NCBI GenBank assembly: GCA_050049995.1 | Contig: JASFVE010000054.1 | Coordinates: 1 to 13,138, forward strand | Reading direction: 5' to 3' | Source: Chlamydiota bacterium | GTDB lineage: Bacteria; Chlamydiota; Chlamydiia; Chlamydiales; SM23-39 | DNA length: 13,138 nucleotides | Shown: positions 4,195 through 13,138 of the stretch, piece by piece | How the letters are laid out: each line of letters starts with the position of its first letter | Position numbering within the stretch: the stretch's first letter is position 1 | Notes under the pieces: generated by a model | Databases searched by the model: none | Seen by the model: the letters and a program-made list of their open reading frames with translations, nothing else | Told to the model about the DNA's origin: nothing | Translations under genes and position numbers: made by a program

Positions 4195-4222
4195 TAAATT
4201 AAGGGAAAAAGTTTGGTTTTTG

Positions 4223-6397
4223 ATGGAACAAAGTGGTAAAGAACAAGATATTATCCATATACACGAGGCTTTAGAGAATCTTTCATCGATAGCAGAGCTT
4301 GATGTGAATAGTGAAAAAATGGTGGGAGTAGTAAAAAATCATAAATTTGTTCTTAGCGATGAAGAAAGCTCTTATAAAACTGTTCATTGGCTTACTCCAG
4401 AGACAGCGGAAGAAGTGATTGAAAACGTCAAACAAACTTTTAAAACTATTTTGGAGTATCTTAAAAACATCTATGAAAATGAGGGGTTTGACTGGGAGAA
4501 TCCTAATAATAGAAAGGGTCTTCAAGCAGTCATGACTCTATCAGGTGAGGCAGCTGCTAAGTTGGATGCATATATAGACAATCTCAATACACCCTTCGAG
4601 ATCCCTAGAATCACAGAGTCTAAGCAGTTTACAGATCTACAGGAGTTTTATACTAAAAATCTTTCTCAGAAAATGGATTTGAAATTGTCTGGAGATAGTG
4701 CTTGGTCGGAAGATTGGAGTGAAAATGAAAATATTCTAGCGGTTGATACAGAAAAAAAGGGGCTTAAAGACTTTGAAACTGTCAGAAGAGATAAAGAGTA
4801 TGAACTTTTTTATTTGAAAAATGAATATGGCCATCCTTTTTTTAATTCCTCATTAATGAGGAATATTAAACTGGTTTGTGATTTTGATGAAATGGTTGAT
4901 GTTTCGATAGAAGATGATCCTCTTTTAAAAATAAGGGCTATGCAAGATCGAGATTTACACGGTGTAGCTCAACAAATTCTTATGGGGTGTGAAAGTCTTA
5001 CGAAAGAGTTTTTTAAATTAGCCAGAGGCAAGACCCAGGAAGTTTTTCAATACGTACACAGAGCTATTATGGCTCTTATGTTAACTTCAAACCCTAAAAA
5101 TCTCATTCAAAATACCTTAGGAAAAAGCAGCCTTTTATATTTCAACGATTTTCAAACTTTTTTAAAAAAGGCGCTAAACTCCAAAGAATATAAAAGGTGG
5201 CTTTCTTACCCGCCCAAAGATTCTGACAAAGCTGCAAGCGTTACACTTAAATTGATTCATTTATTAATTCTTGTGTTTTTCACTCGAAAAGAATCAGTAA
5301 AAGAAGAGGTTATAGGATTAATTCACTATTTGATAGAAAAGGGAAATGAAATCAAACCGAAAAAAAAGGCAAAAGCATATAGTCAAACAATTTGGAATAA
5401 GTTTTTAACAAATGACGATAATATTAGAACTCTTTTGAAGTGCTATCCTAATGGTCCACTTTTTAAAGTTCTGGACATTATTAGATCAGATGAAGTTAGT
5501 GAAAAAGAGATAGCCTTTGATCCGATTCACCAAGAAAATTATCCTTATTCGCTATATAACCTAAATAGCAAAAAGAAAAGCTGTAGTTTTATAAGGTTGC
5601 CTAGTCCTACTCGACAAGCAATGATTAAGTCAGCAACTATTATAGAAGAGTTTCAAAATTTAATTAAGAACTTTTCAGATCAGGAAAAAACATACTTAAT
5701 CTTTAACTTTCAAGACAGATCTTCTTGGAAAGACATTGCTAGAGTCGATGCTTTAGAAAAGTTTTCAAGGCATGCTGAAATAAACCAAGCCCTTAAAGTG
5801 TACACTTTAACAAAAGATTCTGACTTTTACTATCAGACAGATATTTACTTTACTATGACTAAGGCTGAAGAGTTTATGCAAGCATTTCAGACTCAGCTGA
5901 TAGGAGAGCAGGAAAATGGATTTTATTTTGGAATGATTAAGAAAAAAGAAAATTTTTTCGAAAAACTTGAGCGCCTTATATCTTTTGTTCATGACGTTTT
6001 TTTTGATAAAGTTGACTCTCTCGACAGAAAGATGAGATTGGACTTTATAGAGATATTCTATCATTTATTTTATTTGGAAATGATGGAATATCATGATCCT
6101 TCCTATGTAAGCTTTGTTTGCAAAGACGCAGTAGATACTTCTAACGCAACAAATGCAAGTTTTTATGCTTTTATAAATCTTGTCAAAACAGGAAAACTAG
6201 AAAAAAAAGAAAAAGATATTCTTTTATGGCTTTATTATAGACCCGCTCTACTTGTAAGAGAAAGATCTATTACTCCTACAAGGCTTAATAGAACCCTTTC
6301 TTTTTTGGATTATGTTGACGTGACTTTAAAAGAGAAAAAACGAAAAAAACTCTTAGAGAAGTATCCACTATTGAATGAAAGTGATGTAATTAGTTAA
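4223..6397 (+). CDS. Large soluble hypothetical protein (724 aa); C-terminal half has a degenerate CX5R phosphatase-like loop
   Basis: Long intact ORF (ATG 4223; the track starts at TTG 4220), no signal peptide, acidic N-terminal half; C-terminal motifs LIFNFQDR, VYTLTKDSDFYYQ, RLDFIEIFY, SFVCKDAVDTS, PALLVRER. Stop overlaps the mlaD 3' end by 8 bp. Confidence 0.85.
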   Translation: MEQSGKEQDIIHIHEALENLSSIAELDVNSEKMVGVVKNHKFVLSDEESSYKTVHWLTPETAEEVIENVKQTFKTILEYLKNIYENEGFDWENPNNRKGLQAVMTLSGEAAAKLDAYIDNLNTPFEIPRITESKQFTDLQEFYTKNLSQKMDLKLSGDSAWSEDWSENENILAVDTEKKGLKDFETVRRDKEYELFYLKNEYGHPFFNSSLMRNIKLVCDFDEMVDVSIEDDPLLKIRAMQDRDLHGVAQQILMGCESLTKEFFKLARGKTQEVFQYVHRAIMALMLTSNPKNLIQNTLGKSSLLYFNDFQTFLKKALNSKEYKRWLSYPPKDSDKAASVTLKLIHLLILVFFTRKESVKEEVIGLIHYLIEKGNEIKPKKKAKAYSQTIWNKFLTNDDNIRTLLKCYPNGPLFKVLDIIRSDEVSEKEIAFDPIHQENYPYSLYNLNSKKKSCSFIRLPSPTRQAMIKSATIIEEFQNLIKNFSDQEKTYLIFNFQDRSSWKDIARVDALEKFSRHAEINQALKVYTLTKDSDFYYQTDIYFTMTKAEEFMQAFQTQLIGEQENGFYFGMIKKKENFFEKLERLISFVHDVFFDKVDSLDRKMRLDFIEIFYHLFYLEMMEYHDPSYVSFVCKDAVDTSNATNASFYAFINLVKTGKLEKKEKDILLWLYYRPALLVRERSITPTRLNRTLSFLDYVDVTLKEKKRKKLLEKYPLLNESDVIS

Positions 6398-7631
6398 TGC
6401 ACTCATTAACTTGATCTACTAGCTCTTCATTATATGCTTTAAGGGCATCTGAAAGATCATCTACTTGATAGAGAAGTTCTTTAAAGTCTTTAATAAAGGG
6501 TTCACTTTTCATAATTTTAGATTTTTCATCTTGGTCTTCTGCCTTTTCTAAAAGCATATTTAATCGAGATAATGCTGTAGAAATCTGGTCTACTTCACTT
6601 TCGAAATACTGCTTAAACTCTTTAGGAGTATCAACAGCCTCTAAAAGAGCTACTCTTTTCTTGCGAGTTCGTTGCCACTTTTTATCATATTGAAAGAGAA
6701 TACCATAATGGTTTACATCATTCATAAGCGTGTTCATTTTGCTCATAAGCGATACAATTCGTAAGTACATGTCATCTTTTGTTACGAGCTTACCAATAGT
6801 TCCTGAGCCATCGGCAATATCGTTGGTGATAATGTTTAGGTTTTTTAGTACTTGCTTACCATCGATATTAAAAGAATCGAGAGCAATATTGACATTTTCT
6901 AATACATTATTAAATTTGGTAATTGTCTGATCATCTTGAAACTCTTGGATAGAGCTACCTAAAAGTTCCATATTTTCTGTAAAACTATCAATTGCTTTTT
7001 TAGTTCTAATCACTATTTCTTGTTCATTCAGAGAGTTCAGAGCTAAATCTAGTTCATGCATAGAGCCGGCAAAGGATTGTATAGCAAAAGTGATGTCATC
7101 GCTATTTTCCATAAACCATTCATCGATATTGTTAACCACGCCATCTAAACTTTTTGCCAAAGTTGTAAGTTCATAGATCGCGTTTTCCAAAGGATCAACT
7201 GAATCCGCATAAATTATTTGATTTGTAATAAGTTTAGGTACTTTTCCAACAGGGGGAGCCTTAGGGATGATTGCTATTGCTTTTTCTCCCATTAGTCCCG
7301 CTGTAGCTATCGTAACTTCGTCTGTATTATACACATCCACGCTGGAATCCACTCTTAGCGTAAGTTGATAAAAATATACTCTTCCCAGTTCATCTGTCGG
7401 TTGTTCTCTTGCATTAGATACTTCTTGGATCTTCGTTACTTCTCCGACGGGTTTTCCTGCAAAAGTGACTCTTGTTCCTACATTTATACCTGCTATGTTA
7501 GAAAATCTTACCTTTAAGACTTTTTCACCATCACCAACTTTTGGTTCTAAAAAAAGGATAATGGAGATAGTTATTACAATAGCTGTAATGACAAAAACTC
7601 CAATTAAGACTGTTTTCAGTTTATCTGACAT
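6390..7631 (-). CDS. mlaD: MCE/MlaD family lipid-transport protein with long helical C-terminal extension
   Basis: N-terminal TM anchor (VLIGVFVITAIVITISIILFL); MCE domain (VRFSNIAGINVGTRVTFAGKPVGEV...GLMGEKAIAIIP); helical region with DGSGTIGKLV; RBS AAGGAG 5 nt before ATG; follows mlaE and mlaF. Confidence 0.92.
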   Translation of the reverse strand: MSDKLKTVLIGVFVITAIVITISIILFLEPKVGDGEKVLKVRFSNIAGINVGTRVTFAGKPVGEVTKIQEVSNAREQPTDELGRVYFYQLTLRVDSSVDVYNTDEVTIATAGLMGEKAIAIIPKAPPVGKVPKLITNQIIYADSVDPLENAIYELTTLAKSLDGVVNNIDEWFMENSDDITFAIQSFAGSMHELDLALNSLNEQEIVIRTKKAIDSFTENMELLGSSIQEFQDDQTITKFNNVLENVNIALDSFNIDGKQVLKNLNIITNDIADGSGTIGKLVTKDDMYLRIVSLMSKMNTLMNDVNHYGILFQYDKKWQRTRKKRVALLEAVDTPKEFKQYFESEVDQISTALSRLNMLLEKAEDQDEKSKIMKSEPFIKDFKELLYQVDDLSDALKAYNEELVDQVNECIN

Positions 7632-7633
7632 TC

Positions 7634-8401
7634 TTACTCCTTTTTAGCTCTGGGATGGTGGGTTAAATTTTCTTTTAAAAATGATATGATTGGATCGTCA
7701 ATATTTAAAAATTCTTCCGGTTCAGCAACATAAGCAATTTTCCCATCTTTGTGCAAAGCTAAGCGGTCGCCAATAAAAAGAGCAGAGTGCACGTCATGGG
7801 TAACTACTATACTGGTACTTTTAAGTTCACTTTGAATTTGCACAATTAGCTCGTTAATTTGCTGGGCTGTAATAGGATCTAATCCAGTTGTTGGCTCATC
7901 ATATAATAAAATAGACGGTCTATATACGATAAGTCTTGCCAATCCAGCTCTTTTCTTCATACCTCCAGATAAATCAGATGGCATTTTCTTTTCAATTCCT
8001 TCTAGTCCGACTTTAGCAAGAGAGGTCTGAACCATTTCCTGTATTTCTTCTTCTGAGTATGCTTCACCTGTTTCAGATTGGCCGTGTTGTCTGAGATAAA
8101 AAGCGGTATTATCTTCAATGTTCATAGAGTCGAAAAGAGCGGCTCCTTGAAATAACATGCCTGTATTTTTAACGGCCTTAAATAACTCCCTTTTTTTTAA
8201 TTCTGAAATGTTGACTCCATCAATTGCCACATATCCTTGATCGGGCTTTTCTATTCCAATTAACTGTCTTAATAGTACGCTTTTTCCCACACCTGACCTG
8301 CCTAAAATAACGACAGTCTCTCCTGTATTAACAGTTAAGTTGAGCCCCTTTAGCACTTGGTTGCCGTTATAAGATTTCCAAAGATCAACAACTTCTATCA
8401 T
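7634..8401 (-). CDS. mlaF: ABC transporter ATP-binding protein, MlaF/Mkl family
   Basis: Walker A GRSGVGKS, GMLFQGAALFDS, signature LSGGMKKRAGLAR, Walker B LLYDEPTTGLDP, H-loop VVTHD. Confidence 0.96.
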   Translation of the reverse strand: MIEVVDLWKSYNGNQVLKGLNLTVNTGETVVILGRSGVGKSVLLRQLIGIEKPDQGYVAIDGVNISELKKRELFKAVKNTGMLFQGAALFDSMNIEDNTAFYLRQHGQSETGEAYSEEEIQEMVQTSLAKVGLEGIEKKMPSDLSGGMKKRAGLARLIVYRPSILLYDEPTTGLDPITAQQINELIVQIQSELKSTSIVVTHDVHSALFIGDRLALHKDGKIAYVAEPEEFLNIDDPIISFLKENLTHHPRAKKE

Positions 8402-8402
8402 T

Positions 8403-9191
8403 TTATCCCCGGATTGTCAGTTCTTGGTGAATGGTATTTAATGCTATTGTCAGTAAAAAGTCCCATATTAATATTAGTACGTAGCTTATAACAACACTAT
8501 TGGTTGTAGCTTTACCTACACCAGCAGCACCTCCTGATGTTTTCATCCCTTTATAACAACATATAGTTACTAGAATTATTCCAAAAATAAATGATTTAAA
8601 CACCCCGGTAAATAAATCAAATAAAGTAATGTGAATGGGCATAGGGTCAAAATAGCTATTCGGGCTCATCCCAAAATAATGCACAGATATTAAATAGCCT
8701 CCAAAAATCCCCATGATCATACTAAAAATAGTAAGTAAAGGCATCATAACCGTGCCGGCCAAAAATCTAGGCGCTACCAGATAACTGTTGGGGTTAACTG
8801 ACATAGACCTTAAGGCATCGATTTGCTCGGTAACTTTCATGGTGCCAAGCTCTGCACACATGGCTGAGCCAACTCTCCCTGTAACCATGAGGGCTGTAAG
8901 GACAGGCCCTAGCTCTGTAATCATAGCCTTGGCCACTAAAATACCGGTAACAGCCGCAAGTCCTTTTTCTTGAAGTTGGTAAAAAGACTGAGCTGCCAAG
9001 ACAAACCCAGTGGTGAAACCAGTAATCGCTACCACTCCTAAAGAAAGCACACCAATAGAGTAAAGTTGCTCTCGAATCAAAGACCAGCTAGGAGGTTTTT
9101 TAAATACGGAGGAAAAAGTTTCAGAAATTAGTTGGACATATTCTCCAACAGAGCCAAATAAACGAAAAGCAATTTGAGTAAGCGTGCTCAC
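8403..9191 (-). CDS. mlaE: ABC transporter permease, MlaE family
   Basis: Motifs ELGPVLTALMVTGRVGSAMCAELGTMKVTEQIDAL, YLVAPRFLA, GGAAGVGKATTNSVV; GTG start with GGGAGGA RBS upstream. Confidence 0.96.
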   Translation of the reverse strand: MSTLTQIAFRLFGSVGEYVQLISETFSSVFKKPPSWSLIREQLYSIGVLSLGVVAITGFTTGFVLAAQSFYQLQEKGLAAVTGILVAKAMITELGPVLTALMVTGRVGSAMCAELGTMKVTEQIDALRSMSVNPNSYLVAPRFLAGTVMMPLLTIFSMIMGIFGGYLISVHYFGMSPNSYFDPMPIHITLFDLFTGVFKSFIFGIILVTICCYKGMKTSGGAAGVGKATTNSVVISYVLILIWDFLLTIALNTIHQELTIRG

Positions 9192-10780: not shown

Positions 10781-11157
10781 AATGTTTCCAACTTAGATTC
10801 TAGGGATTTCATTTCTTCTAAAAGAACATGGTTTTGCTCAGGAATTTTCTTCTTAGCAAAGCGGATGGCTTTTAATCCTTCTTGAGGATTTTTGAGGTGA
10901 TAATAACAGAGAGCTGCAAAATAAGAAGGAAAGGGATCGCTCTCATTTAACAGTTCTGTCATGGCCCAAGCTTTTAAAGCAAGTTCATACTGACCAGTTT
11001 TTTGTAAACAGGAGGCTAGGCAGTACCAATAGTCTTTTTCATCGGGATATCGAATAACTAATGAGCGAAAGATATCAATAGCCTGTAGTAGGTCATTACT
11101 TTCAAGTGCTTGCATACCTTTGGAAAAAGTATGATTTTCTTCTAGCTGAGTACTCAT
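10777..11157 (-). CDS. Type III secretion class II (translocator) chaperone, SycD/LcrH/Scc family TPR protein
   Basis: Three TPR-like units with SycD-type motifs AIDIFRSLVIRYP...YWYCLASCLQ..GQYELALKAWAM..LLNESDPFPSYFAALCY....NPQEGLKAI; ATGA overlaps at both ends. Confidence 0.88.
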   Translation of the reverse strand: MSTQLEENHTFSKGMQALESNDLLQAIDIFRSLVIRYPDEKDYWYCLASCLQKTGQYELALKAWAMTELLNESDPFPSYFAALCYYHLKNPQEGLKAIRFAKKKIPEQNHVLLEEMKSLESKLETL

Positions 11158-12170
11158 GTCCTTTGGTTTTGTACCATTCTTTTTATAGCATCACCATATC
11201 GATTTAATGTTTGCTTTACAGTTTCAAAGCAGGCCATTTTATCTGTAAATTCCGTTTGAAGAGAAGTGAAATAGAGCTGATTAGAAGTTCTAAGTTCATC
11301 CATGCATGAAGATACACGGTCTAAAAGTACATTTATATCATCTGTGTCAGGAAGTTCAATGGCGCTGTCAGATCCCATTTGAGGAGAAGAGTGACAATTT
11401 TTAATTTTCCTTTTGCTTAAATCATTAAGCAAATCTTGTATCTCCTGTGAGGCTATTTCATCAAGTTCACTAATATAATTTTTGTTGGACTGGTTAGAAG
11501 ATTTCGCTTCTACTAGTCGATTATATAATTTTCTAGCGATATTGTTTGTTTTAGTATTGTAGGAAATGTCATTACCTTTATTTCTTATGGCGTTGTCTAA
11601 GGCTCTTTCTTTATCTAGAAAGATATCAATTACTACTTTATTAAGATTGTAATCTTTAATAGGTTCTTGATTTTCCGCAATTGATCGACATCTTTTAACA
11701 TCATCAACTTGCCTTTGTAGCTGTTCTAAAAAATTGTGAATAAGTTCGTCTTCAGGGTTCAATTTTAACTCTTTTGCCAGTGAGCTTAACTTCTCATATT
11801 CTTGGGGAATCAAATCAGCTTTAGCTTGCAGAAGATCTTCTAAGGAAATTGAGCCGTCGCTATTATCCATTAAATCTATAAGATAGTTGATTTCACGTTC
11901 TGTTAAAAATAAGGAATCGGGGTTCTCATCTTTTTGAGAAGAATTTTTGTGATTTGAGTTAGTATCTGCTTCTTGTAAATCTTTATTGGATGAGTTGATA
12001 TCCCAAGGGTTTTTAGGTAAATTTTGACTCGGATTTATATTTTTATCATCATGGTTAATTAACTGTTGCAATTTCTGAGAAGGAGATAGTTCCTCTTCAC
12101 TTTTCTCAACTGAACTGTTAGAAGTAGGTAAAATATTGGTAAAAGAATCGATATTGTTTTTTGCTGACAT
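11154..12170 (-). CDS. Hydrophilic helical protein heading the translocon operon; candidate T3SS needle-tip protein or secreted substrate
   Basis: 338 aa, no TM; S/N/Q-rich disordered N-terminus like T3S substrates; amphipathic C-terminal helix resembling that of LcrV/PcrV; RBS AAAGGA; ATGA-coupled to the chaperone. Confidence 0.6.
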   Translation of the reverse strand: MSAKNNIDSFTNILPTSNSSVEKSEEELSPSQKLQQLINHDDKNINPSQNLPKNPWDINSSNKDLQEADTNSNHKNSSQKDENPDSLFLTEREINYLIDLMDNSDGSISLEDLLQAKADLIPQEYEKLSSLAKELKLNPEDELIHNFLEQLQRQVDDVKRCRSIAENQEPIKDYNLNKVVIDIFLDKERALDNAIRNKGNDISYNTKTNNIARKLYNRLVEAKSSNQSNKNYISELDEIASQEIQDLLNDLSKRKIKNCHSSPQMGSDSAIELPDTDDINVLLDRVSSCMDELRTSNQLYFTSLQTEFTDKMACFETVKQTLNRYGDAIKRMVQNQRT

Positions 12171-12235: not shown

Positions 12236-13138
12236 TTAAAAATTTCGGTTCCATTTTAAAGAAAATCTTCCTTGTTCTTGCTGCTGGATTGTTTGCGCTT
12301 CAAATAAAAATCCATGTGACAGGTCTACTTCTACGCTTACATTGCTACTTCCTTGTTCTATTCCTTGACTGAAAGTTACTAAAACACCTTTAGCGACATA
12401 CTTGCCTACTTGTACGGCGAAGTCTTCAGCTCCTTCACTTGTGGGAGCTGAAACAATAGCAAGTCGGTCAAATCCAAGTCTTCTTCGGGTAATTTCTAGG
12501 ATATCGGGACCTCCACCAGACAAACTTGCGGCGGTTGTAGCTAAAGAGACTGCTTGAAGGGCAGTTATTTCGGAGATATCGGAACCGAATAGCAAATAAG
12601 ATAAAATTGAGCTCATGGGAAGGGGAGGAAGTGAGGTAAACTGCAAGTTTGGTTCGTTAATTTGACCTGTCCATTTTGCTATTATATTAATTCCCTGAAT
12701 ATTTGTTTGAGCTGTAATATTTAAAAAGGGAAACTCTCCCTTATCGCCAGTAAATATAAGTTCTCCACTAGTTAAATCAAAATAGTGACCAGAAAAGTTA
12801 AACTCGCCTTTTACAAGATCAAGCCTTCCTTCTGCTTGCAAGTCATAATAAAGTCCGTCGAGCTTTATATCGCCTTTCCACTCAGAAGAAAGCCCTCTTC
12901 CTCTTACAAAAAAATTGCCATCTGCTTCCAGTTCGACATCTAAATACAAAGGGAACTTTTTTTTAGGTACAAATACTGGCCTTTTTTTAGGTTGGTTTTT
13001 GTATGTAACAGCAATAGTAGGTACTTTAGTAGCAATTTTTTCAGGAATGTCAAACTCTCCATAAGTAATGAAAGCCTTTCCTCTTGTTATTGCTGAATCG
13101 AAGTTGCCTTCAATGGTTATATTTCCAGTAGCTGATCC
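12236..13138 (-). CDS. tamB: Translocation and assembly module TamB (DUF490), C-terminal part; 5' end lies beyond the window
   Basis: Frame checked by hand and open from 13138 (GSATGNITIEGNFD...FPLYLDVEL). TamB C-terminal motifs FVRGRGLSSEWKG, FTSLPPLPMSSILSYLLFG, LGFDRL, VQVGKYVAKGVLV, SLKWNRNF. Confidence 0.92.
   Translation of the reverse strand, partial: GSATGNITIEGNFDSAITRGKAFITYGEFDIPEKIATKVPTIAVTYKNQPKKRPVFVPKKKFPLYLDVELEADGNFFVRGRGLSSEWKGDIKLDGLYYDLQAEGRLDLVKGEFNFSGHYFDLTSGELIFTGDKGEFPFLNITAQTNIQGINIIAKWTGQINEPNLQFTSLPPLPMSSILSYLLFGSDISEITALQAVSLATTAASLSGGGPDILEITRRRLGFDRLAIVSAPTSEGAEDFAVQVGKYVAKGVLVTFSQGIEQGSSNVSVEVDLSHGFLFEAQTIQQQEQGRFSLKWNRNF

Follow-up and report, generated by a model that had tools for sequence, protein, structure and literature searches.

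A coiled coil is conserved across the needle-tip proteins (SctA) of type III secretion systems (PMC10333785). Tip proteins of the SseB (SPI-2-type; NF052422) and EspA (PF03433) kind have a domain of about 150 residues, which comprises a long helix, a short helix with a loop, and a long C-terminal helix. The LcrV, PcrV and AcrV proteins are encoded in operons of the order lcrV-lcrH-yopB-yopD.

In chlamydiae more than one protein has been put forward as the tip. Elementary bodies of C. trachomatis carry a 28-nm needle, the tip of which was resolved by cryo-ET (PMC4682100). CT584/Cpn0803 was proposed earlier as the tip (PMC3260263, citing its ref. 19), and was rejected when its crystal structure showed neither coiled coil nor pore (PMC3260263); a 2026 review places CT584 among the class I chaperones, and its table names no chlamydial tip pair (PMC13466201). 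In our searches CT584/Cpn0803 (PF17435) was present in one of four genomes (G144) and was not found in the other three (G000, G004, G146). CPn1022 of C. pneumoniae was named a hydrophilic needle-tip protein in 2016, on the basis of hydrophobicity and operon position (PMC4760673); the same source places the lcrH-2 operon at mid-cycle in C. pneumoniae, and describes for the Chlamydiaceae a second operon with its own tip candidate, CPn0810. The N-terminus of the C. pneumoniae homologue of CT863 is reported to act as a secretion signal when tested in Shigella (ref. 21 of PMC3931295), while a lack of expression was reported for CT863 in a Yersinia secretion assay (PMC3931295). A 2026 model of the injectisome makes no mention of CT863, CT584 or the translocon (10.64898/2026.05.06.723290).

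A search of the open-access literature, which leaves subscription journals mostly uncovered, turned up no evidence from homology or structure that CT863 is SctA. In other pathogens the tip protein serves as a protective antigen. CT584 is reported to have failed as one (PMC11512284), and CT863 is therefore an obvious candidate antigen to examine.

The operon described here comes from a genome of the phylum Chlamydiota. The product of its first gene, and the CT863 family to which it belongs, are likely to be the chlamydial SctA needle-tip subunit, of the SseB/EspA rather than the LcrV type. What appears to be new is a homology-based tip assignment across the phylum, with the first homology support that we have found for CT863; the original prediction of an unrecognised tip protein did not hold in that respect, since CPn1022 had already been so named in 2016 (PMC4760673). 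The assignment would replace a one-line positional remark on CPn1022 by one with domain boundaries and open to direct testing in C. trachomatis, and would place the chlamydial tips with SseB/EspA.

Organization of the operon

The window is the whole stretch of DNA that was analysed, 13,138 nucleotides in length. The features of the operon, all on the reverse strand, are collected in Table 1.

Table 1. Positions in the window of the translocator operon genes and of the parts of the tip candidate.
Feature	Position	Strand	Basis
Likely SctA needle-tip / hydrophilic translocator, 338 aa, CT863 family, SseB/EspA-type	11154..12170	-	ORF call, hydropathy, profile searches
Conserved C-terminal domain, residues 175-338	11157..11648	-	leave-out profile E 2.3e-10; AlphaFold pLDDT 85.6, pTM 0.74
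Low-complexity N-terminus, residues 1-88, 60% N/S/D/Q/T/P	11907..12170	-	composition
Lineage-specific helical segment, residues 89-170	11661..11906	-	three helices, single-sequence model pLDDT 40
LcrH/SycD-like class II TPR chaperone, 126 aa	10777..11157	-	TIGR02552 below cut-off; Pfam TPR
SctE/YopB-type hydrophobic translocator, 284 aa	9926..10780	-	neighbour-gene profile; orthologues pass Pfam SseC cut-off
Likely SctB-type second translocator, 212 aa	9278..9916	-	position + one hydrophobic stretch

The first protein is hydrophilic, with a highest 19-residue Kyte-Doolittle mean of 0.25 and no membrane segment. The stop codon of its gene overlaps the ATG of the chaperone gene by four nucleotides (ATGA), and an overlap of the same kind joins the chaperone gene to the 284-aa gene. 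The chaperone matches TIGR02552 (LcrH_SycD) with E 1e-18 and 67 bits, below the cut-off of 104.8. A profile from 50 neighbour genes, a set seeded from the window's own protein, finds the 284-aa gene with E 2e-38 and YopB with E 3e-15, and SctE orthologues at three other loci (L019, L150, L156) lie above the Pfam SseC cut-off. The arrangement predicted originally, a soluble protein translationally coupled to a SycD-type chaperone and translocators, is thus borne out. The 212-aa protein has a single hydrophobic stretch (hydropathy 1.83) and matched no family in Pfam or NCBIfam; from its position only, we infer that it is SctB.

Residues 1-88 of the tip candidate would be its secretion-signal region. 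The segment of residues 89-170 is missing from the short homologues in the alignment, and a self-chaperone role for it is a guess. The source genome (G000) is 98% complete. Away from this operon it contains an injectisome core, with SctN (over its cut-off) and SctO, and it has one strong SctE-type gene; its needle gene is likely G000:C43:13548-13796, judged from a position between cdsE- and cdsG-like genes. Profile searches of this genome found neither a match to CT584 nor another tip candidate.

The tamB gene (12236-13138, reverse strand) ends 65 nt upstream of the 338-aa ORF, and a small lcrG-like ORF was not found upstream. On the same strand, mlaE-mlaF-mlaD (6390-9191) follows the operon. 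An upstream tamB recurs at many loci of the family, and mlaE/F-like genes lie downstream at L153, L156 and L157. On the forward strand the window also contains a 725-aa ORF (4220-6397) that matches nothing in Pfam or NCBIfam, and a neighbouring pair of short hydrophobic ORFs that resemble each other (2032-2448 and 2445-2825).

A chlamydial family encoded first in the translocator operon

The 338-aa protein alone found nothing in Pfam, NCBIfam or the PDB sequences. A single-sequence search of the protein database returned one relative, at 88% and annotated as a Chlamydiae hypothetical protein, and a single-sequence search of genomes gave matches in two of 41. The family was seeded by position: the chaperone was sought in the 41 genomes and the gene upstream was taken, which gave 15 genes that align at the C-terminus. 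The 15-gene profile reached 76 of 103 family genomes. A profile of 13 sequences, none of them from the window's genus, failed to recover the 338-aa protein. With 70 homologues, again without that genus, the protein was first of the 3246 ORFs of its own genome (E 2.3e-10, residues 175-337); for this test five of 75 rows were dropped, namely the window's protein, its twin and three broken or cut ORFs.

A 72-row profile of the domain matched 244 of 400 genomes of the phylum, mostly once each, and found no match in the remaining 156; it matched all 29 scored genomes of the Chlamydiaceae. Among 1.84 billion representatives the family search returned 2096 clusters at E up to 0.001. The lengths of 134 members range from 146 to 494 aa (median 202), with the shortest at 146-180 aa. 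Identity to the window's domain is 9-23%, and N-terminal extensions reach about 330 aa. Alignment A3 was built from 58 of the 71 near homologues and 58 of the 60 distant ones. By these profile matches, the window's protein is a member of a chlamydia-wide family that was unannotated before.

The order of family gene, class II chaperone, SctE and SctB-like gene is kept. By hand count, the next same-strand gene after 75 distinct near homologues is the chaperone in 52 cases, an SctE-type gene in 20 and neither in three; at the 20 loci the chaperone ORF was probably skipped by the overlap rule. The chaperone is the next gene at 48 of 60 distant loci, two of which are one place. The family gene is mostly single-copy and heads the translocator operon in more than a dozen families. 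At one locus (L158, genome G032) it has no chaperone after it, and in genome G023 (L024/L062) it has an internal TGA stop.

In the Chlamydiaceae, family genes of C. pneumoniae, C. muridarum, C. pecorum and C. avium were named by look-up. Their products are about 480 aa long. Each gene has xerD upstream and a SycD/LcrH gene downstream, after which come genes for about 505 and 495 aa. Position, order and sizes match CT863, CT861 and CT860, listed for C. trachomatis at 482, 506 and 493 aa (PMC1403754), and the family is accordingly taken to be that of CT863. This orthology runs through the four species above together with gene order and size, no C. trachomatis gene being among those named; AAD19159.1 is called CPn1022 on its position and on PMC4760673, not through assignment by a tool.

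The window's operon has the gene-chaperone-SctE-SctB order of that of CT863/CPn1022, which is the first gene of an lcrH-2/copB2/copD2-type operon. The resemblance goes beyond position. The C-terminal domain of CT863/CPn1022 is homologous to the window's (E about 1e-7 to 1e-11 per genome), and hhalign gives 97.8% for 13 CT863-type rows against 58 near homologues, so that the gene, predicted originally as a positional analogue of CT863, does share its position but is more than an analogue. The two differ in protein length (about 480 against 338 aa), in the upstream neighbour (xerD against tamB) and in the size of the translocators (about 505 and 495 aa against 284 and 212 aa). At loci of the Chlamydiaceae type (L143-L149, L152, L155, L162) the tip candidate has about 400-500 aa and the translocators about 500 and 300-500 aa.

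It is quite unlikely that the family derives from a tip protein and now acts as a secreted effector or secretion regulator outside the needle. The fast divergence and the variable N-terminal extensions would suit such a role, as would the ESM Atlas features, which rank a cluster of the CT620/CT621 effectors at 0.93, and the report of the C. pneumoniae operon as mid-cycle when the tip was seen on elementary bodies (PMC4760673, PMC4682100). A gene that is mostly single-copy and keeps its first place in the translocator operon in so many families argues against it, as does a source genome with one strong SctE-type gene in which the searches found no further candidate.

Relationship to SseB and EspA

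The reading of the family as a needle-tip subunit is carried by profile comparisons. When a 117-sequence chlamydial profile was run against 143 ORFs from 13 proteobacterial T3SS loci, all of the ten best matches were tip proteins, five of EspA/SseB type and five of LcrV type. The highest score, 42 bits (E 8e-10 on a scale of 177,635 sequences; profile positions 20-156), belongs to an SseB-like protein whose gene, like the chlamydial one, lies directly before a class II TPR chaperone, as in L251. The second-best tip protein is above the NCBIfam SseB cut-off.

In hhalign, the family and nine SseB/EspA rows aligned at 94.4% over 142 columns, collinearly over both long helices, the short helix and the loop; without the best row the value was 92.2%. 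Two chlamydial coiled-coil controls gave 0.1-0.5%, controls that are imperfect in being less diverse than the family and in that the SctE one weakly matches SseB-like paralogues (11.7 bits). Smaller family inputs gave lower values (77.5% with the 72-row profile, 56.8% with 13 CT863-type rows), and four Escherichia EspA sequences alone gave 8%; comparisons with a single EspA (1.6%) or a single LcrV (3.8%) are uninformative. The reference alignments are small (nine SseB/EspA and five LcrV rows), because all of the 120 matches listed for the EspA search were above 80% identity and the LcrV scan yielded two loci. Alignment A6 was made without one cut and one long paralogue, and A7 without L246.

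The reciprocal search agreed. The nine-sequence EspA/SseB profile was run against 4525 chlamydial ORFs that include 132 members. Family members took the top 12 places and 38 of the first 50, and the C. pneumoniae gene scored E 0.003; with the LcrV profile, 13 of the first 50 were members. The window's own protein was reported by neither profile at E up to 300. Its link to SseB is transitive, through the homology of its family.

Curated models stop short of the family. No member is above a Pfam or NCBIfam tip cut-off (PF03433 and NF052422 included), and the 25 families that were listed for 117 of the members include no tip family. Pfam EspA (PF03433) has no match above its cut-off in 300 chlamydial genomes; five matches lie below it, three of them on genes in the family position. 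Against the PDB sequences, the 117-row profile gave sub-threshold matches to EspA (E 0.03), PcrV (0.04), LcrV (0.052) and IpaD (0.11 and 0.14), all in the top 13, and the needle subunit YscF at E 0.035; augmin and a designed protein outrank the tips. The 72-row profile matched EspA at E 0.09, and the 15-row profile found no tip there. Profiles of chlamydial SctO and of the C-terminal region of SctE, run as controls, had no tip among their 9 and 19 PDB matches.

Taken over the whole domain, the profile evidence indicates that the family is a distant homologue of the SseB/EspA needle-tip proteins. The helix order of the two is the same, and the shortest chlamydial members are the size of SseB/EspA. 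The window's protein differs in about 170 extra N-terminal residues and in having no adjacent upstream chaperone gene.

In genome G457 the chaperone is preceded by a tandem array of four SseB/EspA-like paralogues (L251, L253, L256), and genome G436 (L249, L254, L247) has SseB-type paralogues together with an LcrV-type gene.

Comparison with LcrV and IpaD

The original prediction was of a tip protein like LcrV/PcrV. The SctA part of it is retained, on the operon and on the homology to SseB/EspA, while the LcrV type is not: against five LcrV rows hhalign gave 25.9%, compared with the 94.4% above, and over the last helix only, which is the level of EspA against LcrV (27.3%). A member of the LcrV/PcrV family proper would be dumbbell-shaped, its N-terminal domain globular, and would come with an LcrG-type chaperone; we regard this as improbable. 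The gene occupies the same operon slot as lcrV and the lengths are alike; LcrV-type proteins score 10-22 bits against the family profile, and for three of the five the match is split between an internal helix and the last one, where the weak likeness lies; by ESM Atlas features, clusters that contain LcrV take the first and third ranks (0.95 and 0.93). Nevertheless, the conserved core is half the size of LcrV, the shortest members have 146-180 aa, no lcrG-like gene was found in the 65 nt up to tamB, and Pfam LcrV (PF04792) matches in one of 301 chlamydial genomes, in a gene outside the family.

Pfam T3SS_TC also matches in one of 301 genomes, inside a 705-aa frame. IpaD/SipD (PF06511) appear among the PDB sequences as sub-threshold matches of E 0.11-0.9.

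The gap-free alignment with the C-terminal helix of LcrV, on which the earlier assignment drew, does contain the identities (S287, L293, T302, L304, E316, Y325 and R331; 7 of 56), and these are not significant. In shuffled sequences at least seven identities arose in the same register in 431 of 5000 cases, and anywhere in LcrV in 1000 of 1000; other registers give nine.

Genome G160 has a 358-aa ORF (L213:98-1174) outside the CT863 family, the last helix of which is weakly like Pfam LcrV (E 0.009); it is possibly a second tip-like family.

Predicted structure of the conserved domain

AlphaFold, given the 72-row alignment, modelled residues 164-338 with pLDDT 85.6 and pTM 0.74; from the single sequence pLDDT was 40, with residues 1-163 below 55. 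The model has helices at residues 176-225 (50 residues), 238-253 (short) and 279-337 (59 residues). The C-terminal helix that had been proposed is therefore supported as a prediction, with pLDDT above 90. The domain is predicted to have the paired-long-helix architecture of tip proteins.

The fold searches do not discriminate, and do not single out tip proteins for this model. Foldseek returned no match at E up to 0.001; a flagellin core reached TM 0.50, and EspA stood at rank 36 with TM 0.44 and E 1.4. The structural check proposed originally thus yielded the two long helices and not a specific match to the tip fold. In VIA-align, run against 48,161 representatives, flagellins were best (Z 10.7, 150 residues aligned, rmsd 3.8), below the discriminating level for helical models; the matches were flagellin, the IpaB coiled coil, ESCRT-III and prefoldin hairpins (Z 8-10.7), and both long helices of the model align to helical hairpins and flagellin cores. 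No tip protein was among its best 50 rows, a result that does not speak for another fold. Structures searched in the ESM Atlas reached TM 0.37 with no tip, and a four-copy complex prediction, scored at 0.00, yielded no verdict. It is very improbable that the protein is a helical hairpin of unrelated origin, such as a cytoplasmic chaperone, whose tip likeness arises from coiled-coil periodicity: these generic hairpins and the absence of any passed curated cut-off would fit it, and the collinear 142-column match that includes the short helix and loop, the reciprocal ranking and the negative controls speak against it.

Proposed role at the needle

For the SseB/EspA-type tip subunit favoured here, the two long helices would form the paired core, and the short helix with its loop a variable outer part. 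By analogy with the established biology of SctA, the protein would be exported as a middle substrate, assemble onto the end of the needle and act as a scaffold for the insertion of SctE and SctB.

A short cap is a safer reading than an EspA-like extension. We think it rather doubtful, though conceivable, that CT863 subunits polymerise into an SseB/EspA-like, stage-specific filament that bridges the needle to the inclusion or host membrane, with a minimal flagellin-like tip close to an ancestral SctA. The elementary body carries a needle with a tip, yet the lcrH-2 operon is reported as mid-cycle and a second operon contains the candidate CPn0810; CT863 may therefore serve only one stage in the Chlamydiaceae.

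Other helical genes

Six tandem helical ORFs of 165-282 aa, which match nothing in Pfam, lie beside clpX/clpP-like genes in genome G000 (L211; C76:2073-6339). One of them tops the list of its own genome for the SseB/EspA profile (E 0.08, not significant), and another gives 8.8% against the CT863 family, likewise not significant; they are possibly further secreted proteins of the axial type. Elsewhere, other chlamydial lcrH genes (L005:187-1332, L003, L004, L007, L013) are preceded by different hydrophilic ORFs with a long terminal helix, one of which is weakly DUF720-like (E 0.005).
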